In this document: positions 5,321 to 60,816 of the stretch, piece after piece | Position numbering within the stretch: the first letter of the stretch is position 1 | Layout of the letters: each line of letters starts with the position of its first letter | Origin: a virus | Strand: one strand, 5' to 3' | Virus record (IMG/VR): IMGVR_UViG_3300027631_000014 | Coordinates: 12,809 to 76,808 of that record | DNA: 64,000 nt | Notes under the pieces: model-generated | Database searches by the model: none | Told to the model about the DNA's origin: nothing | The model's input: the letters and a program-made list of their open reading frames with translations, nothing else | Program-made: the position numbers and the translations under genes

Positions 5321-6457
5321 ATGGCTAACATTCCTATATATCCAGGTAGCTCGTCGTTTTTTCCAGGTAACACACCCTTTGGATTTTACGACAATGACTA
5401 TCAATTCCAAGTTGATGCAGATAAAGTAACTACTTTTTGTGCTCGAAGACTAGGATACCCTATTATGGATGTTGAATTACAAGATTTAAATTTCTACACA
5501 GCATTTGAAGAATCAATTACTATTTATGGAAATGAATTATATGCATTTCAAGTAAGAGATAACTTATTAAATGTAATTGGTGCTCCTACCTCATCAAATA
5601 TGAATCACGCAATCATAACTCCATCAATGGCTGGTGTTATTAGATTATCGCAGCAATATGCCTCAGAAGCAGGAACAGGAGGAAATGTAAATTGGTATAG
5701 TGGTTCAATTGAAATGACTAATTACCAACAAGATTACGATTTAGGAGCTTGGGCAATAGAAAACAACATAACAGGAGGAATAGAAATAAAAAGAATATTC
5801 TGGCAACCAATTCCAGCAGTTAATCAAGTATACAACTTGAATATGTTCTCAGGATTAGGAGGAGTACCTGCAGTTGGAACTTATGGATTGTTTGGATCAA
5901 CCGGATTTTTAATGTATCCAACAAGTTTATTAGTACAAACAACTCAAGCAGTTGAAATGCAAAACCAAATTTCACTACCTGATTTTACATTTGAATTAAT
6001 AAACAACAAACTAAGAATATTTCCTATTCCAACTCAAGATGGAGATAGAATTTGGTTTCAATATCTTAGTATAGAAGAAAGATTAAATAGTGTTATTGGA
6101 AATGCACCTGGAGCAGTAACTAATGCCTCAAATGCTAACTTTACAAATCCAAAATATACACAAATTAATTCAATTGGTAGACAATGGATATTTGAATATA
6201 CATTAGCATTATGTAAAGAAATGTTAGGATATGTTCGTGGAAAATACACTCAAGTACCTATTCCTGGTAAAGAAATTACTTTAAATCAATCAGACTTAAT
6301 TACAGCTGCAACAGCAGAAAAAACATTATTGATTGATAGGTTAAGAGTATATTTTGATGAAACTTCAAATCAAAAATTATTAGAAAGAAAACAAGCAGAA
6401 TCAGTAGCTCGTCAAAGTGAATTAGGACAATCACCAATGACAATTTTTATAGGATAA
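5321..6457 (+). CDS. Neck protein (T4 gp13-like)
   Basis: RRLGYPIMDVEL N-terminal motif, WIFEYTLALCKEMLGYVRGKY..PG..ITLN motif, terminal PMTIFIG; position ahead of tail genes. Confidence 0.8.
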   Translation: MANIPIYPGSSSFFPGNTPFGFYDNDYQFQVDADKVTTFCARRLGYPIMDVELQDLNFYTAFEESITIYGNELYAFQVRDNLLNVIGAPTSSNMNHAIITPSMAGVIRLSQQYASEAGTGGNVNWYSGSIEMTNYQQDYDLGAWAIENNITGGIEIKRIFWQPIPAVNQVYNLNMFSGLGGVPAVGTYGLFGSTGFLMYPTSLLVQTTQAVEMQNQISLPDFTFELINNKLRIFPIPTQDGDRIWFQYLSIEERLNSVIGNAPGAVTNASNANFTNPKYTQINSIGRQWIFEYTLALCKEMLGYVRGKYTQVPIPGKEITLNQSDLITAATAEKTLLIDRLRVYFDETSNQKLLERKQAESVARQSELGQSPMTIFIG

Positions 6458-6458
6458 T

Positions 6459-6971
6459 ATGGCAATTTTTGGATCAAGTAGAGACGCATCATTCCTAAGA
6501 GGAATGAGTAGAGAGGTAATGGGAAACGTTATCTCACAACAATGTGCTTTTTACAAATACAAACTATCAGAAACTGTTATAAACATGTATGGAGAATCTT
6601 CAGGAGGTAAATTTTTTGGAGGTCCTATTTTGTTTAATGCTTTAATAACTATTGGAGATAATGTGAGTCCAACAAGTGAATTAGGTGTAAACTTTGATTG
6701 GCCTATGTCATTTTCATTTTTAAGAGATGATTTAGTAGATGCAAACGTGCATCCTGAAGTAGGAGACGTTATATTATATCAAGAAAGTTATTGGGAAGTA
6801 GATAATACAATTATAGGACAATTCTGGGGAGGTAAAGATCCTGATTATCCAATGGAACCAAATCCATTAAATCCTGGATTAGCAGAGTTTGGATATAATG
6901 TTTCTGTGATATGTGAATGTCATTACGTGCCAGCTGATAGGTTAAATATTATTAGAACAAGATTATTATAA
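6459..6971 (+). CDS. Neck/head-closure protein (gp14-like)
   Basis: NMYGES and PEVGDVILY..YWEV motifs; follows gp13-like gene. Confidence 0.65.
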   Translation: MAIFGSSRDASFLRGMSREVMGNVISQQCAFYKYKLSETVINMYGESSGGKFFGGPILFNALITIGDNVSPTSELGVNFDWPMSFSFLRDDLVDANVHPEVGDVILYQESYWEVDNTIIGQFWGGKDPDYPMEPNPLNPGLAEFGYNVSVICECHYVPADRLNIIRTRLL

Positions 6972-7882
6972 TGGCTAAAAATAGTAGAACACCCATTCCA
7001 AAAACTCAAAGAGAACTTAGTATTGAACAACACACTGCTTATAGTTCTGAGGTAGGAAATCCTAATACGTCAAATGATCTTAATAGAGGAAATCAAATTT
7101 CTTTTAATGGAGATTCTACTAAACCGTTTTCAATAGGAATTCAAGATATTGATGAGGCAGTTTTTTACTATTTTAAAAATGTAATTAAACCATTTGTTTT
7201 ACAAAATGGAGAAAGAATAGAAGTACCTATTATTTATGGTTCACCTGAAAAGTGGGCTTCATTTCAAAAGTCAGGATACTTTAGAGATTCTCAAGGTAGA
7301 ATTATGATGCCAATCATCATGTTCAAAAGAGACAATGTAGAAAAAGTAAGATCAATTGCAAATAAATTAGATGCAAACAATCCACACAACATATCAATAG
7401 TTAAAAAATCATATTCGTCTAAAAATGCATATGACAATTTTAGTGTATTAAATAATGTTAGACCACAAAAAGTAAATTATGCAGTTGTAGTCCCAGATTA
7501 CATTACTGTAACTTATAGTTGTGCTATCAATACTTATTACATGGATCAGCTAAATAAAATCGTTGAAGCAATTGAATACGCTTCAGATTCATATTGGGGT
7601 GATCCAGCACGTTTTCAGTTTAGAGCGATGATTGATTCGTTTGCTATTAAAGCAGAACTTGCAGATAAAGAGGAAAGAACAGTAAGTAGTACTTTTAATA
7701 TTAAAATGAATGGATACATAATCCCAGACGTAATACAAAAAGATATGACTGCATTAAAGAAAATTCCTGATGTAGTTAAAGTAGTAGTAAGTGAGCAAAT
7801 AATGGGAGAAAATGGGGGAGGAAATAACTATACCCCAGTATATAGATCATTTGATGATTCATTTAATAATTCATTTGGATAA
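6971..7882 (+). CDS. Tail terminator/sheath stabiliser (gp15-like)
   Basis: VPIIYGSPEKW, P.Y.TVTY, QLNKIVEAI motifs; synteny. Confidence 0.7.
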   Translation: MAKNSRTPIPKTQRELSIEQHTAYSSEVGNPNTSNDLNRGNQISFNGDSTKPFSIGIQDIDEAVFYYFKNVIKPFVLQNGERIEVPIIYGSPEKWASFQKSGYFRDSQGRIMMPIIMFKRDNVEKVRSIANKLDANNPHNISIVKKSYSSKNAYDNFSVLNNVRPQKVNYAVVVPDYITVTYSCAINTYYMDQLNKIVEAIEYASDSYWGDPARFQFRAMIDSFAIKAELADKEERTVSSTFNIKMNGYIIPDVIQKDMTALKKIPDVVKVVVSEQIMGENGGGNNYTPVYRSFDDSFNNSFG

Positions 7883-7922
7883 CAATATATTTATACTAGA
7901 TAACATACTTATATAATAAAAA

Positions 7923-8846
7923 ATGTCACAACAAACAAAAAATCAACTAACTGTACTTTTAAATACTAATATTACTGATGCTTTAAATAAGCAAAATACC
8001 GCATCAAAAGTAAGACAAGTTATTCAAAGTACTATCGATAGTTTAGGAATACTATCTGGATCAAATTCATTTGTAGGTGATCAAACAATAACTGGATCAT
8101 TAATTGTAAATGGAAATATTATAGAGACACCGTTTTTAAATAATGAGACTAATAATGTTAATTTTATCAGAGCAACTCAAAATATTATCAATCATGGAGA
8201 TTTATTAATACCATTAAATTGTACTTTCATTATAGAAGAAAATGCCCAATATCTTATATTAGGTGAATTAATTAATAATGGAACTGTTATAGTTAGTGGA
8301 AGTTTAATAGCTAACCAAGGAATAACAGGACCAGGTTCGGTAGTAGGTCCTGGAGTTGTTTCAAATAATAACACAATAATAACATTTGATAAAGCAAATC
8401 AAGCTTATGGATTTCCTCAATTAAATAATACAGGATACAGTAATTTAGGATTTAAAAATAATACTGCAAATTTACTTTCAAACTATTCAACAGTAGCAAC
8501 TCGCTTAGATGGTCAACAATCCGTTTATTCAATAGATACAACAGGATGGGATGCTAATACACAATATTTACATTACTACTTACCAGAAGGACAATACGAA
8601 GGACAATCAGTAGAATTAATAGTGACAGGTAATGGGGTTAATTTAGGTATTGGAAACTCAGCCAAAATACAAATATGGATAGATAGTATCCGTAAGCCAG
8701 AATACTATGGACAATTATCAGGAGGACCAGGAGGATGGCAAGCGTTTTCAGATCCTAATGTGCTTGGTAATTGGAGAAAAGATGTTCCAAGAGCAATTTG
8801 GATGAATAATGCATGGACAATTGACAATGACTTTTACTGGGATTAA
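7923..8846 (+). CDS. Putative virion accessory protein
   Basis: SGSNSFVGDQTITGSL fibre-type motif; preceded by ATATTTAT motif. Confidence 0.5.
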   Translation: MSQQTKNQLTVLLNTNITDALNKQNTASKVRQVIQSTIDSLGILSGSNSFVGDQTITGSLIVNGNIIETPFLNNETNNVNFIRATQNIINHGDLLIPLNCTFIIEENAQYLILGELINNGTVIVSGSLIANQGITGPGSVVGPGVVSNNNTIITFDKANQAYGFPQLNNTGYSNLGFKNNTANLLSNYSTVATRLDGQQSVYSIDTTGWDANTQYLHYYLPEGQYEGQSVELIVTGNGVNLGIGNSAKIQIWIDSIRKPEYYGQLSGGPGGWQAFSDPNVLGNWRKDVPRAIWMNNAWTIDNDFYWD

Positions 8847-8895
8847 TTAAAACAAAAATAACTAATATTTATAATAAACAAAAACTAAAAACAAA

Positions 8896-9822
8896 ATGCC
8901 AACTTATATTGAACTTCAACAAAACGGACCGATTCCTACTTCATCACCAGTAGGAACTGTAATTTTATCAGTAAATCAAGGTCAACTTACACTTACAGAT
9001 AATAATGGAATAAATCCATCACAATCATTATATACAACAACTGTAAGAGGACTTTATCCAAGTGCTTCTTTAACAGAGGTGTGGGGTACATATACTGTAA
9101 ATTATATTAAACAAAAAAGTGGTTACCCATCAAATGATGTATTACATGCTGTAGCAATTTGCTCTGATGATGTAGATGCATTTACAGCTACAGGAAATTT
9201 AGGACAATATCCATTATCTATGCAGTCTTTTCTAGGACCATTTATGGCAGGTGGATTAGCAGGATATCCATTTGTAGGATCAGTTGGATTTGGAGCTTAT
9301 GCTTCACATATCACCGATACAGGAACGTTATTTGTATCTTGTACACCACACATAGGAGTTACTTTTACTGGATCTGCAGGATATCAATTCCGTAAAGGTC
9401 AAGCAGCTATATCTACAAACTGTGGAGCAGTTCATGGAGCAGTAGGATTAGTTACAACTGATCCAAATCCACCATCACAATCAAATGCTCCATATGATAA
9501 TGAAAATTATGAATTGTGGAAATTAGCAGATATAATTTATCCATATTCCGCTTCACTTAGTGGTTCAATTAGTGAAAATGTAATGGTGGCTACAGACATA
9601 ATAAGAGAAGCAGGATGGGATTATGTTGTAAACAATTCAAGTTCATTTTTTAGTTCACTTGCAGGTAGAACAATGTATGCAATGAGTGGTATCTTTATTA
9701 ATACAGATTATCAATTTCAAGCATATACTGATGTAACATATTTTGCATCATATAATTCATTAACAGACACTTGGACAGATCTTACACAAGATTATAAAGA
9801 TGGTTTATTTGCTCAAGGATAA
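8896..9822 (+). CDS. LCIB/LCIC-family (theta-class carbonic anhydrase-like) protein with short N-terminal extension
   Basis: ICSDD, GPFMAGGLAGYPFVG, SH, PHIGV, RKGQ...NCGA, GIFINTD match the LCIB family pattern, including the Cys/His/Cys Zn ligands. Confidence 0.8.
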   Translation: MPTYIELQQNGPIPTSSPVGTVILSVNQGQLTLTDNNGINPSQSLYTTTVRGLYPSASLTEVWGTYTVNYIKQKSGYPSNDVLHAVAICSDDVDAFTATGNLGQYPLSMQSFLGPFMAGGLAGYPFVGSVGFGAYASHITDTGTLFVSCTPHIGVTFTGSAGYQFRKGQAAISTNCGAVHGAVGLVTTDPNPPSQSNAPYDNENYELWKLADIIYPYSASLSGSISENVMVATDIIREAGWDYVVNNSSSFFSSLAGRTMYAMSGIFINTDYQFQAYTDVTYFASYNSLTDTWTDLTQDYKDGLFAQG

Positions 9823-9844
9823 TTAAAAAACAAAAATAAAATTT

Positions 9845-10093
9845 ATGACAACAAAAGTTTTGACACAAGAAGAATTACAATTATTAAAATCAATTCAAGA
9901 AAAACGCCTTCAATTAACTGAACAATTTGGTATTATTGAATTAAGATTTCAAGAACTTGAATTACAAAAAGAATTTCTTAAAGAAGAATTAAAAAAGTTA
10001 CGAAAAGAAGAAACTAACATCGGCGAAACTTTACAACAAAAATATGGTGATGGAACAATCAACCTTGAAAAAGGAGAATTTATAGGCGTCTAA
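9845..10093 (+). CDS. Small coiled-coil protein
   Basis: 82 aa, heptad-rich, ends KYGDGTINLEKGEF; directly upstream of sheath. Confidence 0.6.
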   Translation: MTTKVLTQEELQLLKSIQEKRLQLTEQFGIIELRFQELELQKEFLKEELKKLRKEETNIGETLQQKYGDGTINLEKGEFIGV

Positions 10094-10145
10094 TATTTTT
10101 AATGTGTTTTGCTATATTTATAATAAAATTAAATAAACAAACACA

Positions 10146-11876
10146 ATGGCAGAAACTTTAATATCACCCGGCGTCTTAGCAAGAGAGAACGATTCATCTT
10201 TTGTATCTAAAAGACCGGTTACAGTAGGAGCAGCAATTATAGGACCAACAGTAAAAGGCCCAGTAGAAGTTCCAACAGTAGTAACTACGTACAATGAGTA
10301 TGTTAATAAATTTGGTACCACTTTTGTAAGTGGAAGCACAAATGATAGCCAAACATATACATTTCTTACTTCAATTGCTGCATACAATTACTTTATTAAT
10401 GGAGGTCAATCCTTATTAGTGGCAAGAGTAGTATCTGGATCTTATACAGCGGCTACTAGTTCAGCTGCAACAAATTACTTTACTTCATCTTCTTTTACAT
10501 TACAAACGCTTTCTGAAGGTGCTTTAATGAATAGTAGTTGTACCGAAGTTAGTGGTGCATTATTAGCAAGTGGATCTAAAGACAACGTAAGATGGCAAAT
10601 TGTAAATTCAAATACTTCATCAGGAACATTTGATTTATTAATTAGAAGAGGTGATGACAATTTATTACAACCTGTTATTTTAGAAACATGGACTGGATTA
10701 AATTTAGATCCTAATTCAAATAACTACATTTCTCGTGTAATTGGAGATACAGTTGAAAATTATGTAGCAGGAAACAATTATGATATTAATCAAATTGAAT
10801 ATTCTGGTTCATATGCTAATAGATCAAATTATGTAACTGTAAAACAAGTAATTTATACAACTCCAAATTTCTTAGATAATAATGGAGTAGCAAAATCACA
10901 GTTTACAGGTTCTATTCCTACGAATGCAAGTGGTGCTTTTGGTGGTGCAGTTGGTATTATTAAAGGTGGAGCTAATTTTTATGATAAAATTGACGAATCT
11001 ACAAATTCACAAGGATTAGTAGCAGATAATTATGACAACATGATTAATTTGTTAGCTAATACTGATGACTATAAATTTAATGTATTATTAACACCTGGTT
11101 TATATGATCAAGGAAATTTCGCAGGTAAAGTAAGTACTATTATTGCAAATACTCAAAATAGAGGAGACAATATTTATGTATTAGACCCAGTAGGATATAG
11201 TGTTAGTACTATATCAAGTGTAGTATCTGCAGCCGCAACAAGAAATACTTCATATGCAGCAGAATATTGGCCTTGGTGTCAAGTTGTTGAACCTAGTACA
11301 GGTGATAACGTATGGGTTCCAGCTTCAACAGTAATAGCAGGTGTTTACGCTTACAACGATACAGTAGCAGAACCTTGGTTCGCACCAGCAGGTATTAATC
11401 GTGGTGGTTTATCTACAGTGATTAGAGCTAAATTAAAATTATCTCAAACTCAACGTGATACTTTATACACAGGAAAATTAAATCCAATCGCTACATTCCC
11501 TGGAACAGGTGTTGTAGTATATGGTCAGAAAACATTACAAACAGCAGCATCAGCTCTTGATCGTGTAAATGTTAGAAGATTATTAATTGCTTTAAAATCA
11601 TATATTTCTCAAGTAGCAAATAATTTAGTATTTGAACAAAATACAATTGCTACAAGAAATCAATTCTTATCACAAGTGAACCCATATTTAACAAGTGTTC
11701 AACAAAGACAAGGATTATATGCATTTAAAGTAGTAATGGATGATACAAACAATACTCCAGATGTAATTGATCGTAATGAATTAAGAGGTCAAATTTACTT
11801 ACAGCCTACTAAAACAGCTGAATTTATTTACTTAGATTTCAACGTTACACCAACTGGAGCTAGCTTCCCAGCATAA
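10146..11876 (+). CDS. Tail sheath protein (gp18-like)
   Basis: ISPGV..RE.D, PWFAPAGINRG, RVNVRRLL, PTKTAEFI motifs. Confidence 0.95.
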   Translation: MAETLISPGVLARENDSSFVSKRPVTVGAAIIGPTVKGPVEVPTVVTTYNEYVNKFGTTFVSGSTNDSQTYTFLTSIAAYNYFINGGQSLLVARVVSGSYTAATSSAATNYFTSSSFTLQTLSEGALMNSSCTEVSGALLASGSKDNVRWQIVNSNTSSGTFDLLIRRGDDNLLQPVILETWTGLNLDPNSNNYISRVIGDTVENYVAGNNYDINQIEYSGSYANRSNYVTVKQVIYTTPNFLDNNGVAKSQFTGSIPTNASGAFGGAVGIIKGGANFYDKIDESTNSQGLVADNYDNMINLLANTDDYKFNVLLTPGLYDQGNFAGKVSTIIANTQNRGDNIYVLDPVGYSVSTISSVVSAAATRNTSYAAEYWPWCQVVEPSTGDNVWVPASTVIAGVYAYNDTVAEPWFAPAGINRGGLSTVIRAKLKLSQTQRDTLYTGKLNPIATFPGTGVVVYGQKTLQTAASALDRVNVRRLLIALKSYISQVANNLVFEQNTIATRNQFLSQVNPYLTSVQQRQGLYAFKVVMDDTNNTPDVIDRNELRGQIYLQPTKTAEFIYLDFNVTPTGASFPA

Positions 11877-11959: not shown

Positions 11960-12448
11960 ATGGCAATATTAGACCCAAACGAAATATTTTTCACAGCATT
12001 TGAACCGAAAGTAAAAAATCGATTCATTATGTATGTTGATGGTATTCCTTCATACACAATTAAGAAAATTGGTGCTGTAGGAGTAACAATGGACGAAATT
12101 AAATTAAATCACATTAATGTTTACCGTAAAATTAAAGGTAAAGCACAGTGGGATGATATCGAAATGACTTTATTTGATCCTATCACACCATCAGGTGCTC
12201 AAGCTGTAATGGAATGGGTACGTTTACATCATGAATCAGTTACTGGTCGTGATGGTTACTCAGATTTTTATAAGAAAGATGTAACTATTAACGTATTAGG
12301 CCCTGTAGGTGATATCGTATCAGAATGGATTATTAAAGGTGCGTTTATTAAATCTGCTAAATTTGGTGATTACAGTTGGGATGATGAAAATGCAGCTCAA
12401 GAATTATCAGTAAATTTAGGAATGGATTATTGTATCTTGAATTTCTAA
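11960..12448 (+). CDS. Tail tube protein (gp19-like)
   Basis: FEPK..NRF, W.DIEMTLFDPI, YKKD..INVLGPVGDIVSEW..KGAF; follows sheath. Confidence 0.9.
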   Translation: MAILDPNEIFFTAFEPKVKNRFIMYVDGIPSYTIKKIGAVGVTMDEIKLNHINVYRKIKGKAQWDDIEMTLFDPITPSGAQAVMEWVRLHHESVTGRDGYSDFYKKDVTINVLGPVGDIVSEWIIKGAFIKSAKFGDYSWDDENAAQELSVNLGMDYCILNF

Positions 12449-12471: not shown

Positions 12472-12504
12472 GAACTCACCTTAAACTTGGTGAGTTCCTT
12501 TTTT
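12472..12504 (+). terminator. Intrinsic terminator after tail tube, overlapping a GG-N19-TATATGTA promoter-like element
   Basis: gaactcacc / ggtgagttc stem followed by cttttttg. Confidence 0.75.
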
Positions 12505-13600: not shown

Positions 13601-16054
13601 ATGGCTACCCCTCAGGATGAAATAAATGCTTTAAAAGCAAAAATTGAACAACAGCTTAAATCTAATGCACTTTCTGCTCAGCAAGTAGCAAACCAAACAG
13701 CATCATATAATGCTATATCAGGATCAGTTAATGAATTAGAAAGATATAGAACTCTTTTTAAAGATATTAGTGTTATTATTGATGATGTTGCCGATAGTTT
13801 AGATTTTATGACTAAATCATTTATGGCAGATGTAGCTCATTTAACTAAGGGTAAATCTCTTTTAAATGATCATAAATCAGCTATGAGTAAATTAGCTAAT
13901 ATAGCTAAAGAAACATTAGATGTAAGATTAGGAGAACAAGCTATTGATGAAAAGAGATTTAAAAAACTTCAAGAACAAGCTAGAAAACAAATAGATATTT
14001 TAAAATCTGTTAGAGATCAATATATAACAGAAGGAAAAAATACAAGTGAAATACAAGCTCAAATTGATACTACTGAAAATTTATATAAAGGTTTTTCAAA
14101 AGTAGAAGAAATTAATAAAAAACTCAATAAACAATTAGGAGCTGCTCCAAAATTAGTAGCAGGTATAGATAAAGCATTTCAAAAACTGGGCCTCCCAGAT
14201 TTGGGCTTTAGTACAGCTTTAGATGAAACAAAACAATTAGGTCAAGAGGCTGCGGCACAAGGAGATGAGGCTTTTAAGAAATTTTCCCCAATGAAAACCC
14301 TTACCGGAAAAATATGGGATAATTTTAAAGGAATGTTTACTACTGCCAATATTTTACAAGCAAGTATTGGACTTTTTATTGAAGCTCTTATTACTGGAGA
14401 TAAAGCCACTGGTGATTTAGCTAAAACATTTAATATAACATATGATTCTGCGACTAACATAAGAGAAGAACTTATAGAAATAGGCAACATCTCAGGTAAT
14501 GTAGCTTTAAATGCTAGAGCATTACAAGAATCAATGGTTGCTATAGGTGTAGCTTTAGGTTCAAATGCTAAATTAAATAAAGAAGATTTAATAACATTTA
14601 CTGAATTAAGAGAAATGGCCGGGTACACTAATGAAGAATTAGTAGGTATTCAAAAACTAACATTAGCAACCGGAGGTAATTTAAAAGATAATGTAAAACA
14701 GTTTTTAGGAACAGTATCTGCTTTAAATGCTCAAAATAAATTAACTGTAAATGAAAAACAATTATTAAAAGAAGTATCAAACACGTCAGCAGCTATTAAA
14801 TTGTCAGTTGGTGGAACAACTAAAGGCCTAGCAGAAGCGGCATTTCAAGCAAAACAATTTGGTATTAATTTACAACAAGCTGATCAAATAGCTGAAAAAT
14901 TATTAGACTTTGAATCTTCAATTACAAATGAATTATCAGCAGAATTAATTACTGGTAAAAATTTAAATTTAGAAAAAGCAAGATTATTAGCATTAAATAA
15001 TGATATAGCAGGTGCATCTGCAGAAATATTAAAACAAGTAGGAGGTACAGCTGAATTTACTAAAATGAATCGTATTCAACAAGAAGCTTTAGCAAAAGCA
15101 GTTAATATGAGTAGAGAAGATTTAGCAGCTTCATTAGTTGAAAGAGAAGCATTAAGTAAATTAGGAGTAAAAGACGCAGCAGCAGCAAAAGTAAAATTTG
15201 ACTTATTAGTTAAAGAAAAAGGATATGCAGCTGCAGTAGCAGAATTGGGTGATGATCAATATGCTAATCAATTAAAACAACAATCTATTCAAGAAAGATT
15301 TAATCAATCAGTTGAAAAATTAAAAGAAATATTTATTTCAATAGCAGAACCTGTACTTAAAATTGTTTCCCCATTAGTAGATTTAGTAACAAATGTATTA
15401 CCATTAATAAATTTTATTTTAACCCCAGCATTAGCTACTATTACGTATATAGGAGACAGCATTTCAGGATGGCTTACAATGTTTGATGGAGGTTTAAATA
15501 AATTAACTACAATGCAAAAAATTGTAGGATTTATTGGGACTGCTATTATAGCATGGAAAGCAGGAATGGTAGCATATAATGCGTATCAAGCAGTAGCAGC
15601 AGCTTTAACTGCATCTACTGCCGCAGGAGCTATGTCTACAGCTGCTGCTTTAACTTTGGGTTTAGGTTTAGCTACTATAATAGGAGGTATAATTATAGGG
15701 GTAGGAGCTATAAAATCCGCATCCAAAGACGCAGCAAGTGGAGCTGCCCAAGTACGTGATGGTGAAATTAATTCTAATGGAGGATTAGTAGTATCTAAAT
15801 TTGAAAAGGGACAACTACAACCTGTAGCTCAAGGTATTAAAGAAGATAATGTTATATTTACTACAAATAAAGTTAAACAAAATAATTCTACTTCACAAAA
15901 TTCACAACAAGACTTATCTCCACTTTTAGAAGAAATGAGAGCATTACGACAAGAGCAATCTAGATCAAACAGTAAGCCAATAATAGTAGATAGCTACACA
16001 GACAGTACTAAAACTGGAACGGCTACTGCAATGAGAAAAGTAAAAATTCAATAA
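13601..16054 (+). CDS. Tape measure protein
   Basis: 817 aa, helical and Ala/Leu/Gln-rich with hydrophobic C-terminal segments; follows the chaperones. Confidence 0.8.
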   Translation: MATPQDEINALKAKIEQQLKSNALSAQQVANQTASYNAISGSVNELERYRTLFKDISVIIDDVADSLDFMTKSFMADVAHLTKGKSLLNDHKSAMSKLANIAKETLDVRLGEQAIDEKRFKKLQEQARKQIDILKSVRDQYITEGKNTSEIQAQIDTTENLYKGFSKVEEINKKLNKQLGAAPKLVAGIDKAFQKLGLPDLGFSTALDETKQLGQEAAAQGDEAFKKFSPMKTLTGKIWDNFKGMFTTANILQASIGLFIEALITGDKATGDLAKTFNITYDSATNIREELIEIGNISGNVALNARALQESMVAIGVALGSNAKLNKEDLITFTELREMAGYTNEELVGIQKLTLATGGNLKDNVKQFLGTVSALNAQNKLTVNEKQLLKEVSNTSAAIKLSVGGTTKGLAEAAFQAKQFGINLQQADQIAEKLLDFESSITNELSAELITGKNLNLEKARLLALNNDIAGASAEILKQVGGTAEFTKMNRIQQEALAKAVNMSREDLAASLVEREALSKLGVKDAAAAKVKFDLLVKEKGYAAAVAELGDDQYANQLKQQSIQERFNQSVEKLKEIFISIAEPVLKIVSPLVDLVTNVLPLINFILTPALATITYIGDSISGWLTMFDGGLNKLTTMQKIVGFIGTAIIAWKAGMVAYNAYQAVAAALTASTAAGAMSTAAALTLGLGLATIIGGIIIGVGAIKSASKDAASGAAQVRDGEINSNGGLVVSKFEKGQLQPVAQGIKEDNVIFTTNKVKQNNSTSQNSQQDLSPLLEEMRALRQEQSRSNSKPIIVDSYTDSTKTGTATAMRKVKIQ

Positions 16055-18540: not shown

Positions 18541-21500
18541 ATGAATATATTAGGTGAAGGATTCCCAGACGCTATTATAGATCAAGTACACCAACGCCAA
18601 AAAAGATATGGGGCTGGATATACTGGTACTCAAAGATCAGCTGAAGAATTAGTATACTTAAATGCTAATACATCTTGGTGTAAATTAGTATCCTCAGTAG
18701 ACATTGAAGATATAAAAAATATTGTAAATCAATCTTTATCTGGTCTTCCTAATATGGTTGGTAGTAGTTTAGCCGAAAAATTTGTTTTGTTTAATGGAGT
18801 AAATGATGATGGTTCTGGTGATAATCAAAGATCAGGAGTGGCTAGCTCAAATACTATTTTAGGTTACAACAATGCTTATGGTATTGGAGGAAATGATTTT
18901 GGTATTCGTCCTATGATGGGTATCCAATCAGCTAATATCAAACACGAAAACAGAGGTTCAATAAGAAGAGCAACAGTAAAAATAAAAGCATTTAACAAAG
19001 TTCAATTTGATATTATAGATGTTTTATATTTAAGATTAGGATTTAGTATATTATTAGAATGGGGACATTCAATGTATTATGACAATAAAGGTGTATTACA
19101 AACCAATCCACAAAATAGTCTATCATCTGAATTTTTAACAGGGAAAGGACAAGGTATTTTTACCCCAACCCCAGGATCAAATAACCTAAAATCAGGAACA
19201 ACAACATATTTACCTTTAACTTATGAAGATTTTCTTAAAAAAATAGCAAGTCAAAAAATAAAATCTAACGGTAACTATGATGCTATGTTTGCTAAAGTTA
19301 CTAATTACCATTGGTCATTTTTACCTGATGGAAGTTACGATATAACTTTAGATTTAGTTAGTATTGGAGACGTAGTTGAATCTTTTAAAATAAATGCATT
19401 AGTAGATGGTTTAATACTTAATACAACCACTACTGGATTATTAGATCCAAATGCACGTGATGATGAAGTTATAGATTATTATGCTAGTAAAAATAGTATT
19501 GGTACATTTTTCTCTAACACTCTACTTAATGGAACTAGAACACAAATAGGAGGTAATGGTTTATCAATTCCTTCCGCCATAACAATTACATCAAATGAAA
19601 TTAGTACTGGAAAAATAGATGCATTAGTCATAACTTATAATTCATCTATTAATTTTAAATTATATGTAAGACTAGGAACGTTACTTCAATTTTTCCAACA
19701 AAAATTAATGTATCAAATTATAGTTGGTTCTATTTCTTCTCCGATGTTAAAATTTGATTATGATGAACAAAGTAATATAATGTATGTTAATGATATACAA
19801 GTTAGTGTTGACCCAAATGTTTGTGTAATTAATAGAACAATAAATATAAGTGGAACTGATTATTCTTTTGCACCCGATGCTGAACCATTTGAAGGAACAT
19901 TATTAGGTCCAAGTTATGGACAAATAATGAATATATATGTTAATATGAAGTGGATATTACTTAAAATGGATGAATTAAAGGATGCTAGTAGTAATAAAGT
20001 AGTTCTTATTGATTTATTAAATAATATATTATCTGCAATAAATAGCTCATTAGGAGGAGTAAATGCTCTAGAAGCAACTATAGATGACACTACTAATACT
20101 GTTATAATTAGGGATATGAATCCTCTTCCTAATACTAAATCTGTAATTGAGAAATTAAATGGGATAGGAAAATCAATTCCTGACAAATATGCATATTTTG
20201 ATTTATATGGATATAGTAAAGATGAACACCCTGTAAACCCATCAATATATAAAGATCCTACAGATCCTAGAAAAAATTTAGGTCATGCTTCATTTATAAA
20301 AGATTTTAATTTTACAACAGAAATATCTCCTGAATTATCAACTATGTTAACTATAGGTGCAACTGCTAATAGTAAAGTAGTAGGAGAAAATTCAACTGCA
20401 TTTTCAAAATTCAATATTGGTTTAAAAGATAGATTTAAAGAAGAAATAGGATACTTACCTCCATCTATTGGAGGGTTCAACATTGTTACAGCAATAACTT
20501 ATATCGACCCAGCAACTATAGCAAAGTTTAGTGCTGGACAACAACAACAATCTTTAATTGATGATTTAGCATTAAAATATGTTCAAAGTAAAAAAGTATT
20601 TGATGATTATTTAATAAATCTATCTAAGAGAATATATAATGGAGATGCTGAGACTTATAAAGATGCAATGACTAGCTATCTTAATTATTTAAATCAATTA
20701 AAACAAGCTATAGCTGTTAAATTAGCTATTCAACGTAACAAACCATTAAGTAGTATATTACCATCATTTGCACCAGGAACAGGATTCATACCATTTAATA
20801 TGTCTTTAACAATGGATGGATTGTCAGGAATGAAAATATATAGTAAATTTTTTGTCGATACAAGATATTTACCTACTAACTATCCAGACAATGCTGAGTT
20901 TTTAATAAAAAATATTGAACATAAAATAGAAAACAATAAATGGTTTACTACTATAGAATCAATTGTTATATCTAAAGGAGATATAGATCCAAAACAACTT
21001 ACCCAAGTAGTAAATATTGGAGGGTCAGGTGGAGGATCAGGTGGTGGATATGGAAATGGACAAATAACATACCCTTTAACACTTCAATTTACAACCCCAC
21101 CCCCATCAACTTTATTGTTCTCTAAATTTATATTTCCTGTAACAGGAACAATCACTAGTAAGGTTGGAGTAAGAGCTGTTCAAAATGGAGTACCAGGTAG
21201 TGATCAACATAGAGCAATAGATATAGCTGCCCCAAAAGGAACACCAGTATACAGTTCTACAGATGGAGTTGTATCCATAATAGGAGCTGGTGGGTATGGT
21301 CCAAATTGTGTTATTATAGAAATATTCCCACCACACGCTTTACCACCTGTTGCTCAAAAATGGTATATTATTTATGGTCATATGGATACTTCAACAGTAA
21401 CTGTGGGAACTAGAGTAGTGGCAGGTCAACAAATAGGAACAGTAGGAGATAAAGGTAGTCCTGGAGCGGAACATTTACATATCCAGATTAGAAATATTCT

Positions 21501-21594
21501 TAACGGAATGGATTCTACAGGGTTATCAATTGATATCAATCAATTTTTTCCACCAAAAGGAGGAAAAATAACAGCAAAACAACCATTTTTATAA
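18541..21594 (+). CDS. Baseplate hub protein with C-terminal M23 peptidase
   Basis: Hub-like N-terminal region, Gly-rich linker, then M23 motifs HRAID, YGHM, HLH. Confidence 0.8.
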   Translation: MNILGEGFPDAIIDQVHQRQKRYGAGYTGTQRSAEELVYLNANTSWCKLVSSVDIEDIKNIVNQSLSGLPNMVGSSLAEKFVLFNGVNDDGSGDNQRSGVASSNTILGYNNAYGIGGNDFGIRPMMGIQSANIKHENRGSIRRATVKIKAFNKVQFDIIDVLYLRLGFSILLEWGHSMYYDNKGVLQTNPQNSLSSEFLTGKGQGIFTPTPGSNNLKSGTTTYLPLTYEDFLKKIASQKIKSNGNYDAMFAKVTNYHWSFLPDGSYDITLDLVSIGDVVESFKINALVDGLILNTTTTGLLDPNARDDEVIDYYASKNSIGTFFSNTLLNGTRTQIGGNGLSIPSAITITSNEISTGKIDALVITYNSSINFKLYVRLGTLLQFFQQKLMYQIIVGSISSPMLKFDYDEQSNIMYVNDIQVSVDPNVCVINRTINISGTDYSFAPDAEPFEGTLLGPSYGQIMNIYVNMKWILLKMDELKDASSNKVVLIDLLNNILSAINSSLGGVNALEATIDDTTNTVIIRDMNPLPNTKSVIEKLNGIGKSIPDKYAYFDLYGYSKDEHPVNPSIYKDPTDPRKNLGHASFIKDFNFTTEISPELSTMLTIGATANSKVVGENSTAFSKFNIGLKDRFKEEIGYLPPSIGGFNIVTAITYIDPATIAKFSAGQQQQSLIDDLALKYVQSKKVFDDYLINLSKRIYNGDAETYKDAMTSYLNYLNQLKQAIAVKLAIQRNKPLSSILPSFAPGTGFIPFNMSLTMDGLSGMKIYSKFFVDTRYLPTNYPDNAEFLIKNIEHKIENNKWFTTIESIVISKGDIDPKQLTQVVNIGGSGGGSGGGYGNGQITYPLTLQFTTPPPSTLLFSKFIFPVTGTITSKVGVRAVQNGVPGSDQHRAIDIAAPKGTPVYSSTDGVVSIIGAGGYGPNCVIIEIFPPHALPPVAQKWYIIYGHMDTSTVTVGTRVVAGQQIGTVGDKGSPGAEHLHIQIRNILNGMDSTGLSIDINQFFPPKGGKITAKQPFL

Positions 21595-22336: not shown

Positions 22337-23626
22337 ATGTTTTATATTGTCGAAACCGACGAACAATTAAATGAATTATTTGACAAAGACTATGATAAAG
22401 TTTTTGTTGAACCTATTTATTATAATGACAACATACATCCATCACTAAATCATATATCTTTACTGTATATAAAGCCATTAAACAACGATAAAGGCTATAT
22501 GGTGTGTATTCATCATACTGAGGCATTAGAGCTGAATAAAACGCCTATAAACCGTTTATTGGCGTCATTTACTGAAGTATATGTACGTGATAGAAAGTCA
22601 TTTATATATCGTTTTCCATTAAAAAATATTATAGATATTTCATTTGGTGCTCCTGAATATGCTGAATTAACAACCCAAACACATGATTTTTTCTATCAAA
22701 AACATGGTGATGTTGAAGATATAAATACCATTATCCCATTGGTTAAACATTATGAAAGGTGTGAATTGGTATTTAATAAGGTAAAAGAGTATTGTGTTAA
22801 ATTTGACAATACAAAGTTTCATAATAAATTAACAAGTGTATTTTTTGCAATTGAAAGAAACGGAATTAAAATAAATAAAGATGTATTTAATGAATTTTTT
22901 AAACCAAACACTGAGTTATACTCTATTCAAGATAGTAAAGTATATACCCAATATAACTTATATACTACAACCGGAAGGCCTTCCAATAGCTTTAACGGCA
23001 TCAATTTTGCAGCATTGAAAAAAGAGGATGGATGTAGAGAAGCATTTATACCAGAAAATGATTGCTTTATTGAAATAGATATAAGTGCTTACCACCCAAC
23101 ATTAGCAGCACATTTAGTAAAATATGATTTTGGAGATGAAACACCATATCAATACTTTGCTAAAGAAGCTGAAATTGAAGTAGATGAAGCAAAAATACTA
23201 ATGTTTAGACAGTTATATGGAGGAATATATAAAGAATATCAACATATAGAATACTTTCAACTAATTCAAAAACATACAGATAAGTTATGGAAGGACTTTA
23301 AAACGAATGGTTTTATCGAATGCCCAATTTCAGGACATAAATTTAAAAACAACATAAAAGATATCAATCCTCAAAAACTATTTAACTATACATTACAAAA
23401 TTTAGAAACATCAACAAATGTACTGATATTGTGGGATATCATGATGTTATTAAAAGGTAAAAAAACAAAAATAGTATTATACATATACGATGCTCTTCTA
23501 TTTGATATAGATAAAGATGAAGAAAAAGAATTAATGAATAAAATATTAAACATATACTATAAATATAATTTACGAGTTACTAGTAAAAAAGGAATAAATT
23601 ATAAAGATATTAAAATTATCAAGTAA
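22337..23626 (+). CDS. Minimal family A DNA polymerase-like protein
   Basis: TTTGRPS, motif A DISAYHP, motif B K..F..LYG, motif C YIYDALLFD; only 429 aa. Confidence 0.8.
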   Translation: MFYIVETDEQLNELFDKDYDKVFVEPIYYNDNIHPSLNHISLLYIKPLNNDKGYMVCIHHTEALELNKTPINRLLASFTEVYVRDRKSFIYRFPLKNIIDISFGAPEYAELTTQTHDFFYQKHGDVEDINTIIPLVKHYERCELVFNKVKEYCVKFDNTKFHNKLTSVFFAIERNGIKINKDVFNEFFKPNTELYSIQDSKVYTQYNLYTTTGRPSNSFNGINFAALKKEDGCREAFIPENDCFIEIDISAYHPTLAAHLVKYDFGDETPYQYFAKEAEIEVDEAKILMFRQLYGGIYKEYQHIEYFQLIQKHTDKLWKDFKTNGFIECPISGHKFKNNIKDINPQKLFNYTLQNLETSTNVLILWDIMMLLKGKKTKIVLYIYDALLFDIDKDEEKELMNKILNIYYKYNLRVTSKKGINYKDIKIIK

Positions 23627-33997: not shown

Positions 33998-34025
33998 GAT
34001 TACTAAGTCTTAAAACGTATATTTA
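33994..34025 (+). promoter_or_regulatory. Promoter CTAGG-N19-TATATTTA
   Basis: Exact motif upstream of the DpdA-like gene. Confidence 0.7.
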
Positions 34026-34037
34026 AATAAAAAAGTT

Positions 34038-41670: not shown

Positions 41671-43110
41671 ATGAATAAACTAGATAAACAATACACAGAC
41701 CTACTCCAAGACATCTTAGATAATGGAGTAACAAAAAGTGACCGTACAGGCACAGGAACGCTATCAGTATTCGGAAGACAGATTCGTCATAAAATGAGTG
41801 ATGGGTTTCCTTTACTCACAACTAAAAAGATGGCTTGGAAATCAGTGGTAACTGAATTGTTATGGTTTTTAAGAGGAGATACCAACATCAAATACCTTGT
41901 AGATAATGGTTGTCATATTTGGGACGGTGATGTGTATAAGAATTACAGAAGTAAAGCCTCTATGAGTAACGATAAAGATTGTTTAGTTAGACAAGAAGAA
42001 GGTTCGTTGCTTAAAGAAATGAGACTTTTTACACAAGAAGAATTCATCAACAAAATAAAAACAGATGATGAGTTTGCTAATAAGTGGGGTGATTTAGGTC
42101 CCGTGTATGGGAAGCAATGGAGGAGTTGGGGTGAAAGATATTCATCTTGGGAAAAATTTGAAGGTGGGATTGTTCCTGATGGTGTAGAAATAAAAAGTTT
42201 TGTACACAAAGGATTAATGACAAGAAAAAAAATAAAAGGTATAGACCAAATCGCAAACCTTATCAACGACCTTAAAACAAACCCAGACTCAAGACGATTA
42301 ATGGTTTCAGCTTGGAATGTTGGAGAATTGGATTCAATGGTTCTTCCACCATGTCATTATGGATTTCAAGTTTATACAAGAGAGTTGAGTTATGAAGAAA
42401 GATGTGATGTGTTTCAATTTACTACTGATTTCAACAAGGAAACCAGAGAACACCTTAAAGAATTCAATAATGATATTATGAATGACTATAACACCCCAAC
42501 ACGAGCAATCTCTCTAATGTGGAATCAACGTTCAGTAGATACATTCTTAGGTTTACCATTCAATATAGCATCTTATGGTTTACTATTAGAAATCATCGCT
42601 AAAGCAGTTAATATGGTTCCTGATGAGCTAATTGGAAATTTAGGTGATGTACACCTTTACAGTAACCATGTTGAACAAGCAAAGGAACAGATTGGTAGAG
42701 AGCTGAGTTTAGAAGAAGTTAAAAAAATCTATATTGATTGGAGCTTGTTAAAAAGTTCTGGAGGTTATGCTGGTGATATTAAAGCAGATATTTGTGAATT
42801 CACTAATCAGATATTTATTGATGGGTGGAAAAATAATAAAGACCCTTTCACAGGTAAACCTTTAATTGAACTTGAATGTTTTTTATTAAACTCCATTCAC
42901 ACAAGGCAACCATTCCCATTACCAACATTAAACATCAATGCAGAGTTCTGGCCAACAGAAAATGGTTCATGTGGAGAAGGACCATTAGATGCTATAGCAA
43001 TATTTAACGGATTTAAAGATGATAATTTTTGTAAATGTTTATTAGAGGAAGATATACAATTAAGTAATTATGTATCTCATCCAAGCATTAAAGCACCTTT
43101 ATCAAATTAG
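41671..43110 (+). CDS. thyA: Thymidylate synthase with several large insertions
   Basis: DRTGTG, PLLTTK, ELLWF, GPVYGKQWR, LPPCH, QRSVD..LGLPFN, HLYSNH; 479 aa. Confidence 0.95.
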   Translation: MNKLDKQYTDLLQDILDNGVTKSDRTGTGTLSVFGRQIRHKMSDGFPLLTTKKMAWKSVVTELLWFLRGDTNIKYLVDNGCHIWDGDVYKNYRSKASMSNDKDCLVRQEEGSLLKEMRLFTQEEFINKIKTDDEFANKWGDLGPVYGKQWRSWGERYSSWEKFEGGIVPDGVEIKSFVHKGLMTRKKIKGIDQIANLINDLKTNPDSRRLMVSAWNVGELDSMVLPPCHYGFQVYTRELSYEERCDVFQFTTDFNKETREHLKEFNNDIMNDYNTPTRAISLMWNQRSVDTFLGLPFNIASYGLLLEIIAKAVNMVPDELIGNLGDVHLYSNHVEQAKEQIGRELSLEEVKKIYIDWSLLKSSGGYAGDIKADICEFTNQIFIDGWKNNKDPFTGKPLIELECFLLNSIHTRQPFPLPTLNINAEFWPTENGSCGEGPLDAIAIFNGFKDDNFCKCLLEEDIQLSNYVSHPSIKAPLSN

Positions 43111-44354: not shown

Positions 44355-44380
44355 CTTATATTTAAATAAAAAATAAAGTT

Positions 44381-47449: not shown

Positions 47450-47469
47450 AAATTACTTATATTTAAATT

Positions 47470-48785: not shown

Positions 48786-50411
48786 ATGAATAAAAAAGTA
48801 GAATTCGGGCCTGACGCTCGTAAAAGAATTGTAAACGGTATTAATAAAGTAGCAGATGCAGTGACATCCACTTTAGGACCTAATGGTAGAAACGTTATAT
48901 ACACTGAATTTGGCGAAGTAAGGTCAACAAAAGATGGTGTTACTGTCGCAAAACAGATTTCAAATCTAGAAGATCCATTAGAAGAATTAGGTGTACAGAT
49001 GATTAAACAAGCATCTATCAAAACAGCAAACAATGCAGGTGATGGTACAACTACATCTACTTTACTTGCTCAATCTATTATTAATGAGGGTTTATCTTAT
49101 TTAGATAAAGGAGCAAATGCAGTAGAAATTAAACGTGGTATTGATCAAGCAGTAAAAGAAGTAGTAAATTGTATTCGTAAAGAGATATCACAAGATATTA
49201 ACCACGAATCTCAATTAGAACAAGTAGCTACAATTTCAGCAAACAACGACCCAGAAATTGGAAAGTTAATTGCAGCAGCGATGGATAAAGTAGGTCGTGA
49301 AGGAGTAGTTCATATTGAAGAATCTAAAACAGGAGAAACATATCTTGAAACAGTAGAAGGTATGCAATTTGATAGAGGATATAAGTCACATTACTTTGTT
49401 ACAAACAATGCTGATATGACTTGTACTTTAGAAGAACCATTCATTTTAATTGCAGACAAGAAATTTAATCAAGTAAAAGATTTATTACCAATTTTAGAAG
49501 GCGTTTCAGGAACAGGAAAATCGTTATTGATTATTGCTGAAGATATTGACGGAGAAGCTTTATCGACTTTAATTGTAAATAAAATGAGAGGAACATTAAA
49601 AGTAGCAGCTGTAAAAGCTCCTGACTTTGGTGATCGTAGAAAATTATTACTAGAGGATATGGCTACTATGACTGGTGGTCAGGTATTTAGTTCAGATAAA
49701 GGAATGAAGTTAGATAAATTTTCTTGGGATTGGTTTGGTAAAGCTCGTTTAGTTACTATTTCTAAAGACCAAACAACTATTGTTGATGGCAAAGGAGAAA
49801 CAGAAAAAATCGAAGCACGAATTGAAGAACTTCAACAGCAAATTGACAAATCAATTGTACCATTCGAAAAAGAAAAGTTACAAGAACGCTTAGCAAAATT
49901 TATTGGTGGTGTAGCTATTATTCACGTAGGTGGAAATAGTGAACTAGAAATGAAAGAAACTAAAGATCGTGTTGACGATGCTTTACATGCTACAAAAGCA
50001 GCAATTGAAGAAGGTATTGTACCAGGTGGTGGATCTGTTTTATTATATGCTCGTGAAGCAATTATTAAAACAAGAACTGAACTAGATTCAGACATCTACA
50101 TTGGTAAACAAATAGTTTATAAAGCATGTGCTGCTCCATTTATGAAGATTTTAACAAATGCAGGTTACTCAGAAGGTGAATGTTATGGTTTAATCAATCA
50201 AATGGGAGATAACAACTGGAAAGGATACAATTTAAAATCTGAAACATTCGTAGATATGAAAGAGGCGGGCATCATCGACCCAGCTAAAGTAACTAGAAAT
50301 GCTATTGAAAATGCAGCATCAATTGCTGGTACAGTATTGTTAACTGAAGCAGCAATTATTGAAGTAAATAACGATAAAAAAGAAGAAGGTGGAATGCCTG
50401 GAATGTACTAA
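48786..50411 (+). CDS. groEL: Chaperonin GroEL
   Basis: TLGPNGRNV, AGDGTTT, GMQFDRGY, KAPDFGDRRK, GIIDPAKV, GGMPGM tail. Confidence 0.97.
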   Translation: MNKKVEFGPDARKRIVNGINKVADAVTSTLGPNGRNVIYTEFGEVRSTKDGVTVAKQISNLEDPLEELGVQMIKQASIKTANNAGDGTTTSTLLAQSIINEGLSYLDKGANAVEIKRGIDQAVKEVVNCIRKEISQDINHESQLEQVATISANNDPEIGKLIAAAMDKVGREGVVHIEESKTGETYLETVEGMQFDRGYKSHYFVTNNADMTCTLEEPFILIADKKFNQVKDLLPILEGVSGTGKSLLIIAEDIDGEALSTLIVNKMRGTLKVAAVKAPDFGDRRKLLLEDMATMTGGQVFSSDKGMKLDKFSWDWFGKARLVTISKDQTTIVDGKGETEKIEARIEELQQQIDKSIVPFEKEKLQERLAKFIGGVAIIHVGGNSELEMKETKDRVDDALHATKAAIEEGIVPGGGSVLLYAREAIIKTRTELDSDIYIGKQIVYKACAAPFMKILTNAGYSEGECYGLINQMGDNNWKGYNLKSETFVDMKEAGIIDPAKVTRNAIENAASIAGTVLLTEAAIIEVNNDKKEEGGMPGMY

Positions 50412-51211: not shown

Positions 51212-51243
51212 TTTGGCTTCCTAAATTAGGAATTATATATTTA
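51212..51243 (+). promoter_or_regulatory. Promoter TTTGG-N19-TATATTTA
   Basis: Exact motif. Confidence 0.75.
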
Positions 51244-51258
51244 ATAAAAATAAAAGTT

Positions 51259-54191: not shown

Positions 54192-54374
54192 ATGGAAAAT
54201 AAAGAAATACTGACATCAGTAAAAGTAGAAAAAGATCTATTTGAAACCTTCAAAATAGAATGTGTAAAAAGAAAATTCTCATTAAATAAGCTTGTAAATC
54301 GAACAATGGATTTGTATCTTAACGATGAAAATTTTAGAAAACAACTTACCAATTACAATAACCCAAAAAACTAA
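54192..54374 (+). CDS. Ribbon-helix-helix-like small DNA-binding protein
   Basis: LTSVKV strand followed by two helices; 60 aa. Confidence 0.55.
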   Translation: MENKEILTSVKVEKDLFETFKIECVKRKFSLNKLVNRTMDLYLNDENFRKQLTNYNNPKN

Positions 54375-54390
54375 AAACAAAAACAAAGTT

Positions 54391-55842: not shown

Positions 55843-55853
55843 AAAATAAAAAT

Positions 55854-57158: not shown

Positions 57159-57159
57159 A

Positions 57160-57618: not shown

Positions 57619-57650
57619 TTTGGATTACAAAAATTAATTTTTTATATTTA
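57619..57650 (+). promoter_or_regulatory. Promoter TTTGG-N19-TATATTTA (near-leaderless)
   Basis: Exact motif ending 4 nt before ATG 57655. Confidence 0.7.
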
Positions 57651-57654
57651 CAGT

Positions 57655-59471: not shown

Positions 59472-59489
59472 TAATAAAAAAATAAAATT

Positions 59490-60814: not shown

Positions 60815-60816
60815 AA

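Follow-up and report, generated by a model that had tools for sequence, protein, structure and literature searches.

A phage branch of LCIB-type carbonic anhydrases and its putative display on virus particles

LCIB proteins, the theta-type carbonic anhydrases (CAs), have so far been known from algal CO2-concentrating mechanisms and from scattered bacterial homologues. PtLCIB4 (PDB entry 5b5y) and PtLCIB3 of the diatom Phaeodactylum tricornutum, with other solved LCIB_C_CA proteins (such as 6kfs and 9vzj) the nearest structural relatives of the protein considered here, are reported to be constitutively active (PMC9614477), whereas LCIB and LCIC of Chlamydomonas (5k5w and 5b5x), which form a chloroplast complex, keep the same residues without CA activity in vitro (review PMC5876011). 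Here we describe a gene of this family in a virus. It occupies positions 8896-9822 of a 64,000-nt stretch of DNA, hereafter the window, which belongs to a 76.8-kb virus record of IMG/VR (IMGVR_UViG_3300027631_000014; CheckV completeness 47%, GC content 30%). Its product belongs to a deep, apparently phage-only branch of the family, which keeps the whole active site and is present on dozens of large genomes of uncultured phages from lakes and from brackish and marine water.

The window protein shares with the PtLCIB4-type enzymes the Pfam family, the fold, the Zn ligands, the Asp, the family-invariant Arg, the equivalent of His88 and the Ser past the first Cys. However, it is only ~23-27% identical to them, has a 7-aa insertion and a 40-aa N-terminal extension (replaced by other handles in some relatives), contains far fewer charged residues and is encoded in a viral late-gene context rather than as part of a CO2-concentrating mechanism. 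The Chlamydomonas proteins belong to the same family, but identity in the structural alignment is 12-14% and their chloroplast setting is unlike that of the phage protein. Canonical beta-CAs (PF00484, e.g. E. coli Can and H. influenzae HICA) share the fold class weakly and have the same Cys/His/Cys zinc chemistry; the phage protein, in contrast, has PF18599 as its sole Pfam match and lacks the CxDxR and HxxC spacing. Among virion proteins, tailspike depolymerases and fibre-borne esterases resemble the phage LCIB relatives in joining a conserved N-terminal module, common to neighbouring proteins, to a variable C-terminal working domain, and in being encoded in late structural regions. These enzymes cut host polysaccharide or cell wall, whereas a CA has no obvious substrate in the envelope and its attachment to the particle is here putative. 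The D8 protein of Vaccinia virus, an attachment protein of an animal virus, carries an alpha-CA-like fold with lost Zn ligands on the virus particle. Both proteins have CA-type folds, but the alpha-CA fold of D8 is unrelated, the phage protein keeps its full site, and for the latter display on the particle is putative. We lean slightly towards the view that the phage protein is a late, accessory, surface-exposed component of the particle with a working CA domain.

The LCIB-type gene and its active site

The open reading frame (ORF) at 8896-9822 is a true member of the LCIB/theta-CA family. The PF18599 (LCIB_C_CA) profile matches its residues 68-284 over profile positions 11-220 of 223 (E-value = 7.6e-29, 101 bits against a cut-off of 25). 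When PDB sequences were searched with phmmer, 6kfs (E-value = 2.5e-16) and PtLCIB4 5b5y (1.5e-14) were retrieved, along with the PtLCIB4 mutants S47R and H88A and with 9vzj. An AlphaFold2 (AF2) model, built with 32 homologues as input, has a predicted local distance difference test (pLDDT) score of 71 and a predicted template modelling (TM) score of 0.73. Foldseek matched this model to PtLCIB4 (5b5y_A, E-value = 1.4e-12, TM-score 0.78 by target length) and 6kfs (7e-12), then to LCIB and LCIC of Chlamydomonas (3.5e-06 and 4.9e-06), and only weakly to canonical beta-CAs (0.02-0.2). A sequence match between residues 145-189 and a phage tail protein (PDB 9c2d_S, E-value = 0.019) was discarded as due to chance because it was missing from the Foldseek matches.

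The first-pass annotation of the window had assigned the gene to this family from a series of peptide motifs (ICSDD, GGLAGYPFVG, SH, PHIG, RKGQ, NCGA and GIFINTD), every one of which is found in the 308-aa translation, and the comparison with LCIB structures that it proposed agrees with the assignment. It had also regarded the Cys-His-Cys zinc site as intact. Indeed, C89, H152 and C176 align in the PDB sequence alignment with the Cys/His/Cys of PtLCIB4, which we take to be Cys46, His102 and Cys126, a numbering that fits the chain alignment. Residue S90 aligns with the position altered in PtLCIB4 S47R (Ser in the wild type), and H138 with that altered in H88A. For the roles of the catalytic Asp, Arg and His we relied on reviews, PDB entry titles and general knowledge.

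Conservation of the site was assessed at two levels. In 161 distinct phage-clade sequences, spanning 35-96% core identity to the query, C89, D91, H138, H152, R166 and C176 are invariant except for a few gapped rows and one C176Y substitution, and position 90 is occupied by Ser or Ala and in no case by Arg as in S47R. Across 101 representatives of the whole family (mutual identity of at most 50%), the near-invariant columns correspond to C89, D91, F116, G119, G120, G123, P125, H138, H152, R166, C176 and N269, all of them kept here; the six catalytic-site residues are present in 98-101 of these 101 sequences (the Zn ligands alone in 98-100). The Arg located four residues past the Asp in PtLCIB4 shows no family-wide conservation and is Ala in the window protein, whose first motif is CSDDV and whose His152 and Cys176 lie 24 residues apart. 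The 7-aa insertion (aa 99-105), just past Cys-x-Asp, is found in ~22 of the 101 representatives and marks the phage clade. The N-terminal extension, estimated at ~45 aa in the first-pass annotation, proved to be real at ~40-45 aa: the PDB alignment begins at residue 40, and residues 1-38 are modelled at pLDDT <50, with a predicted beta-hairpin at 22-35.

Phage homologues and their distribution

A search of a large protein collection yielded 238 LCIB homologues at E-value ≤0.001; the best 120 of the 238 share 45-96% identity with the query and range in length from 200 to 402 aa. HMMER, run against 1.8 billion representatives, collected 661 family members, 22 of them with E-values below 1e-30, and some of the longer members of this set are multi-domain, with two or three copies of the LCIB domain. 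At least 65 viral contigs in IMG/VR carry an LCIB relative. No homologue was found by tblastn in 50,697 GenBank phage records, and PHROGs has no family for the protein. A peptide-pattern scan of 185,579 prokaryote species, one genome per species, retrieved no homologue above 38% identity, only proteins with 25-38% identity, mostly from Bacteroidota. In the maximum-likelihood tree, all 16 viral sequences are placed together with 19 unlabelled representatives beyond one long branch (0.84; Shimodaira-Hasegawa-like approximate likelihood ratio test support of 99), and the other side of the tree consists of cellular sequences, namely, proteins of Bacteroidota, Chloroflexota and Spirochaetota. Judging from these sequence comparisons, the phage homologues are one old, phage-only branch of the LCIB family. 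A one-sided viral clade on a long branch fits a single old acquisition of LCIB followed by its spread among phages.

The window stretch is present in marine-labelled metagenomes and in many from lakes and other freshwater. The cultured phages nearest to it are Flavobacterium phage immuto, with 54% identity in the sheath, and Microcystis phage Mel-JY01, with 48% in the sheath and 34% in family-B DNA polymerase (PolB). From the sheath match to immuto, the host may be guessed to be a Flavobacterium-like bacterium of fresh water or the Baltic. In full-text literature searches, no paper turned up that deals with LCIB-type proteins of phages or with a CA as part of a phage particle, in line with the first-pass annotation, which knew of no such virion component. 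Viral alpha, beta and gamma CAs, however, have already been treated as metabolic genes in viromes (preprint 10.64898/2026.01.21.700432).

The domain also occurs in other protein forms. Locus L009 typifies proteins with a ~100-aa C-terminal extension, and in L010 (9647-11977) and L011 a 776-aa protein has its LCIB domain at residues 149-364, with a 115-aa N-terminal and a ~390-aa C-terminal part of no known kind. The N-terminal half of P0047 (322 aa, from a 2.7-kb contig) resembles the sub-clade of the window protein and its C-terminal half a distant clade of 358-aa proteins; this is either recombination inside the LCIB gene or an assembly chimera.

Setting in the neck-tail block, composition and N-terminal handles

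The promoter-like motif ATATTTATAATAAA, which had been noticed upstream of the LCIB gene at 8865, does exist there and is over-represented: allowing at most one mismatch, it occurs at nine sites, all on the + strand, against 1.15 expected, and none of the shuffles reached nine. Exact copies lie about 18-30 nt before the start codons of the neck adaptor (5298), LCIB (8865; 18 nt), sheath (10114) and tube (11930) genes. A one-mismatch copy is found ahead of the tape-measure gene (13572), and the remaining four sites (23653, 29467, 43621 and 50668) are located ahead of other genes. Thus, the signal used by the main tail genes also stands in a separate copy before LCIB, and we infer that this gene is transcribed late, together with them. 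Replication genes are preceded by a related but distinct TATATTTAAATAAAA-like motif, variants of which are located at 34015-34035, 44355-44378, 47455-47468 and 51230-51255; the two classes may represent a simple late/middle switch in this AT-rich phage. A scan for sigma-70 promoters and terminators gave nothing above chance near the LCIB gene. The sole convincing terminator-like site in the neck-tail block is a 9-pair hairpin followed by a T run, just past the tube gene (12472-12497). One RNA run (X24) covers parts of the sheath gene (11012-11758) and a short stretch of the tube gene and has no bearing on LCIB.

The gene shares its position with p307, the gene directly upstream, in a slot bordered by a neck-type triad on the left and by an 82-aa gene and the sheath gene on the right (Table 1). 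The triad is collinear with its homologues in Mel-JY01 (43%, 29% and 26% identity), where the order is adaptor-174-333-104-sheath with nothing inserted. In immuto, a lysozyme gene and hypothetical genes precede the homologue of the 82-aa gene. Together, the two phages identify the site just upstream of the 82-aa gene as a variable slot. Closer relatives carry there p307, LCIB and a 91-aa ORF (L001-L003), p307, LCIB and a 432-aa YadA-head protein that weakly matches tail-fibre PHROGs (L004), or a single 374-aa LCIB protein (L005 and L006). Lake contigs with a likeness of at least 85% join position 7605 to 10034 and 7798 to 9835 with the cassette absent, so the LCIB cassette is accessory and dispensable. 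Joints that go back (e.g. from 11876 to 8865) are a product of the repeated promoter motif and not rearrangements. The first-pass annotation had placed the gene between the tail terminator and the sheath. It does lie within the neck-tail block but adjoins neither of them, the order being p303 (a putative terminator), p307, LCIB, 82-aa gene and sheath. As for p307, it has no match in Pfam, PHROGs or, by tblastn, GenBank phages, and an Atlas look-up returned unnamed viral clusters only; its C-terminal 245 aa have no known fold.

The composition of the LCIB protein resembles that of surface proteins. Charged residues make up 10.4% (Lys plus Glu 3.6%), the second lowest charge among 31 window proteins, and 48.7% of residues are Ser, Thr, Asn, Gly, Ala or Gln. 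Charged residues account for 2-16% in the sheath, p307, the ORF at 3-1364, the neck adaptor and the fibre (charged/Lys plus Glu: sheath 14.1/5.7%, p307 12.1/5.5%, fibre 2.3/1.2%), compared with 25-28% in the replication and sugar enzymes of the window, a sugar epimerase with 18% being the exception. The low charge is a feature of the phage clade, with a median of 13.7% versus 20.7% in other LCIB representatives. In distant loci the LCIB median is 13.2%, while glycosyltransferases, PolB, carbamoyltransferase and pirin have 22-29% and the partners that bear the same handles as LCIB 7-12%. The SxS motifs that the first-pass annotation had likened to those of virion proteins are likewise enriched: [ST][GAS]S tripeptides occur six times against 1.8 expected from composition, the sheath and p307 are alike in this respect, and nearly all window enzymes lack them. 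Such a composition argues, if indirectly, that the LCIB protein would work outside the cytoplasm.

In three lineages of relatives the N-terminal part of LCIB has been exchanged for, or is shared with, that of another phage protein. In L005 and L006, 374-aa LCIB proteins have their own N-terminus replaced by the first ~60 aa of p307, which itself is absent there; in a BLASTP alignment of p307 with P0032, 61 of 76 positions are identical, including nearly all of the first 60. This module is found only on p307-type and 374-aa LCIB proteins. The LCIB proteins of the largest clade (355-363 aa) begin with 65 aa predicted to form a six-stranded, Ig-like beta-sandwich (AF2 pLDDT 87). The same handle heads neighbouring proteins of 127, 496, 787 and 910 aa as well as large adhesin-like proteins of 496-1040 aa, several of which have DUF285 repeats. 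It heads six ORFs in a 272-kb, 91%-complete genome, and three of the six are large, consecutive, low-charge proteins encoded right after the large terminase gene, two of them with DUF285 repeats. In L066, the LCIB gene immediately precedes the neck triad, and residues 1-89 of its product match an adjacent small ORF (56% identity). The Ig-like handle has no significant match in PDB or BFVD, so its fold is no proof of a virion role, and it is not present in the window phage's own genome. By analogy, these exchanges suggest indirectly that LCIB has moved between N-terminal handles in the way that phages treat distal domains of particle-bound proteins. A side observation on the handle comes from L127 (7830-19007; G001), where the large terminase gene is immediately followed by those for four consecutive proteins of 744-1062 aa, ~8% charged; DUF285 (BspA-like) repeats make up three of the four, and the Ig-like handle of LCIB is present on three.

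Table 1. Features of the LCIB locus and of the neighbouring neck-tail block (positions in the window)
Feature	Position	Strand	Basis or remark
Fibre-like protein, 1014 aa	2239-5283
Neck-type triad (378, 170 and 303 aa)	5321-7882	+	Left border of slot
Neck adaptor, 378 aa	5321-6457		PHROG 211, head-tail adaptor Ad2, 2e-10
170-aa protein	6459-6971
p303, 303 aa	6971-7882		Candidate tail terminator by first-pass annotation only
p307	7923-8846	+	First ~60 aa a portable module; BLASTP against P0032
Promoter-like motif ATATTTATAATAAA	8865-8878	+	Identical to copies of neck adaptor, sheath and tube
LCIB/theta-type CA gene, 308 aa (P0001)	8896-9822	+	Pfam PF18599, PDB sequence matches, Foldseek
N-terminal extension, aa 1-42, outside LCIB core	8896-9021	+	AF2 confidence, sub-clade distribution
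LCIB catalytic core, aa 43-306	9022-9813	+	Contains Zn ligands, D91, H138, R166 and 7-aa insertion (aa 99-105)
Zn ligand codon C89 (tgc)	9160-9162	+
Zn ligand codon H152 (cac)	9349-9351	+
Zn ligand codon C176 (tgt)	9421-9423	+
82-aa gene and sheath gene	9845-11876	+	Right border of slot
Coiled-coil-like protein, 82 aa	9845-10093		Homologues directly upstream of sheath in immuto (40%) and Mel-JY01 (30%)
Tail sheath	10146-11876		PHROG 23, 1.7e-74; Pfam Phage_sheath_1 and 1C
Tube	11960-12448
Hub/chaperone-like protein, 239 aa	12548-13267
Tape-measure protein	13601-16054

Proposed particle display and the alternatives

If the LCIB protein is a late, accessory component of the particle, the following scheme can be envisaged. 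A gene with its own ATATTTATAATAAA copy, placed in the variable slot that separates the neck genes from the sheath gene, would be expressed late. The protein would be tethered to the virion, most likely around the neck or collar, by its short N-terminal segment, leaving the C-terminal ~265 aa, presumably an intact catalytic domain, to interconvert CO2 and bicarbonate outside the cell. The phage might benefit if pH or inorganic carbon were thereby altered locally at the surface of the host while it adsorbs. We infer the attachment to the particle, the catalytic activity and any benefit from sequence. A fuller version, in which an active LCIB-type CA sits on the outside of virions of tailed phages that infect low-GC aquatic bacteria, on exchangeable handles like those of fibre tips, and shifts CO2, bicarbonate or pH in the boundary layer of the host during adsorption or genome delivery, is tentative and, taken as a whole, doubtful. 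Should it indeed be located on particles and active, the protein would represent the first virion enzyme to act on inorganic carbon and not on host polymers, and so a new functional class of virion-associated enzyme, raising the question of what pH and CO2 do in phage adsorption in natural waters.

Several observations weigh against a place on the particle or against activity there. Beta-CAs are dimeric, which would be an awkward fit to trimeric fibres. Residues 1-45 of the window protein are confined to LCIB proteins of its own sub-clade and occur on no non-LCIB protein, and some members of the phage clade have almost no N-terminal extension. Two active-site loops (90-104 and 114-140) are modelled at pLDDT <50. 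The dispensability of the cassette and the lysozyme gene in immuto, by which the slot is not reserved for structural genes, count in the same direction, as does the in vitro inactivity of the Chlamydomonas proteins despite their conserved site. Moreover, most phage lineages carry LCIB between glycosyltransferase genes and PolB. In the large clade the gene is part of a variable island between an HtrL_YibB-type glycosyltransferase gene and PolB, its neighbours there being pirin and large proteins of no known kind (in L024, a 1339-aa YadA-head protein); most of the large proteins (700-1200 aa) encoded beside LCIB in distant loci match neither Pfam nor PHROGs. Three points of the first-pass annotation hold only in part. 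It had proposed to check whether homologues stay within structural modules, which is true of the window clade and L066, which are in the neck-tail block, but not of most lineages. The likeness of the extension to virion-attachment segments is indirectly supported by the module exchange in three lineages of relatives and not by the window protein's own unshared 45 aa. Display on the virion, as opposed to an ordinary metabolic role, is favoured by the late-type motif, the same module exchange and the surface-like composition, and disfavoured by the gene context in most lineages and by the unshared N-terminus.

The gene context elsewhere invites an explanation in which the protein is a soluble intracellular CA, the product of an auxiliary metabolic gene, that equilibrates CO2 and bicarbonate for carbamoyl-phosphate, purine or fatty-acid synthesis or for the sugar-modifying and carbamoylating enzymes of the phage. 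We regard it as unlikely, if still to be taken seriously. Within 10 kb of LCIB, an HtrL_YibB-type glycosyltransferase is encoded in 33 loci and an N-acetylglucosamine (GlcNAc) transferase in 32, and the window phage itself has a large sugar cluster at 54-64 kb. The strict conservation of the catalytic residues, the dispensability of the cassette and the discussion of alpha, beta and gamma CAs as virome metabolic genes (10.64898/2026.01.21.700432) would also suit such a role. In L009 (4969-11131), the gene for an LCIB protein 62% identical to the query (399 aa with its C-terminal extension) follows genes for a carbamoyltransferase and for a 1090-aa carbamoyltransferase-HtrL_YibB fusion and precedes PolB. 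The link to carbamoyl-phosphate supply that this locus suggested was nevertheless demoted to a part of the metabolic explanation, because L009 is the only one of 65 loci with a carbamoyltransferase within 10 kb of LCIB and the 76.8 kb of the window phage contain none. Other findings speak against a soluble enzyme more generally. The composition differs from that of the intracellular enzymes both of the window and of related loci, and the N-terminal modules are common to large, low-charge adhesin- or fibre-like proteins. In the window clade and L066 the gene is inside the neck-tail block, where it has the motif of the tail genes. In the window, therefore, both location and composition are unlike those of an auxiliary metabolic gene; in distant lineages a metabolic gene context is partly present, but the composition is still surface-like. 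Should the protein be intracellular after all, the set of viral metabolic genes with a bearing on carbon cycling would gain a theta-class enzyme.

Two further alternatives concern what the domain does, and the first of them could apply wherever the protein is located. The fold may have lost its catalytic use, the Zn site being kept for stability and the domain being used on the particle for binding, sensing or spacing. The phage clade's own 7-aa insertion right after Cys-x-Asp, the poorly modelled active-site loops and the handling of the domain like a variable distal domain of fibre-type proteins are compatible with this, and LCIB and LCIC of Chlamydomonas offer a precedent (PMC5876011). Yet D91, H138 and R166 are invariant besides the three ligands, position 90 is Ser or Ala and never an Arg of the S47R type, and PtLCIB3 and PtLCIB4 are reported to be constitutively active (PMC9614477), which makes a non-catalytic role distinctly improbable in our estimation. 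The same insertion near the active site, together with the long stem branch of the phage clade, could alternatively reflect a change of substrate. Some enzymes with the beta-CA fold hydrolyse carbonyl sulfide or carbon disulfide, and by analogy the phage protein might act on another small molecule of this kind. However, no change of a conserved-site residue separates the phage clade from active LCIB proteins, and we consider a different substrate highly improbable.

Some other genes of the window deserve mention. The 1014-aa protein upstream of the neck adaptor gene is 2.3% charged, consists of Ser, Thr, Asn, Gly, Ala and Gln to 64%, has repetitive Thr/Gly/Asn-rich segments without a family match and is presumably a fibre. 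Past the tape-measure gene, positions 18541-21594 encode a 1017-aa protein whose C-terminal domain is an M23 peptidase and which is probably a tail-associated cell-wall hydrolase. Taken together, positions 22337-23626, 41671-43110, 44861-47449 and 48786-50411 encode PolB, a short family-A-like polymerase, a 479-aa thymidylate synthase with inserts and a GroEL-type chaperonin. The sugar cluster (54325-63069) encodes two GT1 and one GT2 glycosyltransferases, a TOD1/MUCI70-like transferase, a DegT aminotransferase, methyltransferases and a nucleoside diphosphate (NDP)-sugar epimerase/dehydratase.

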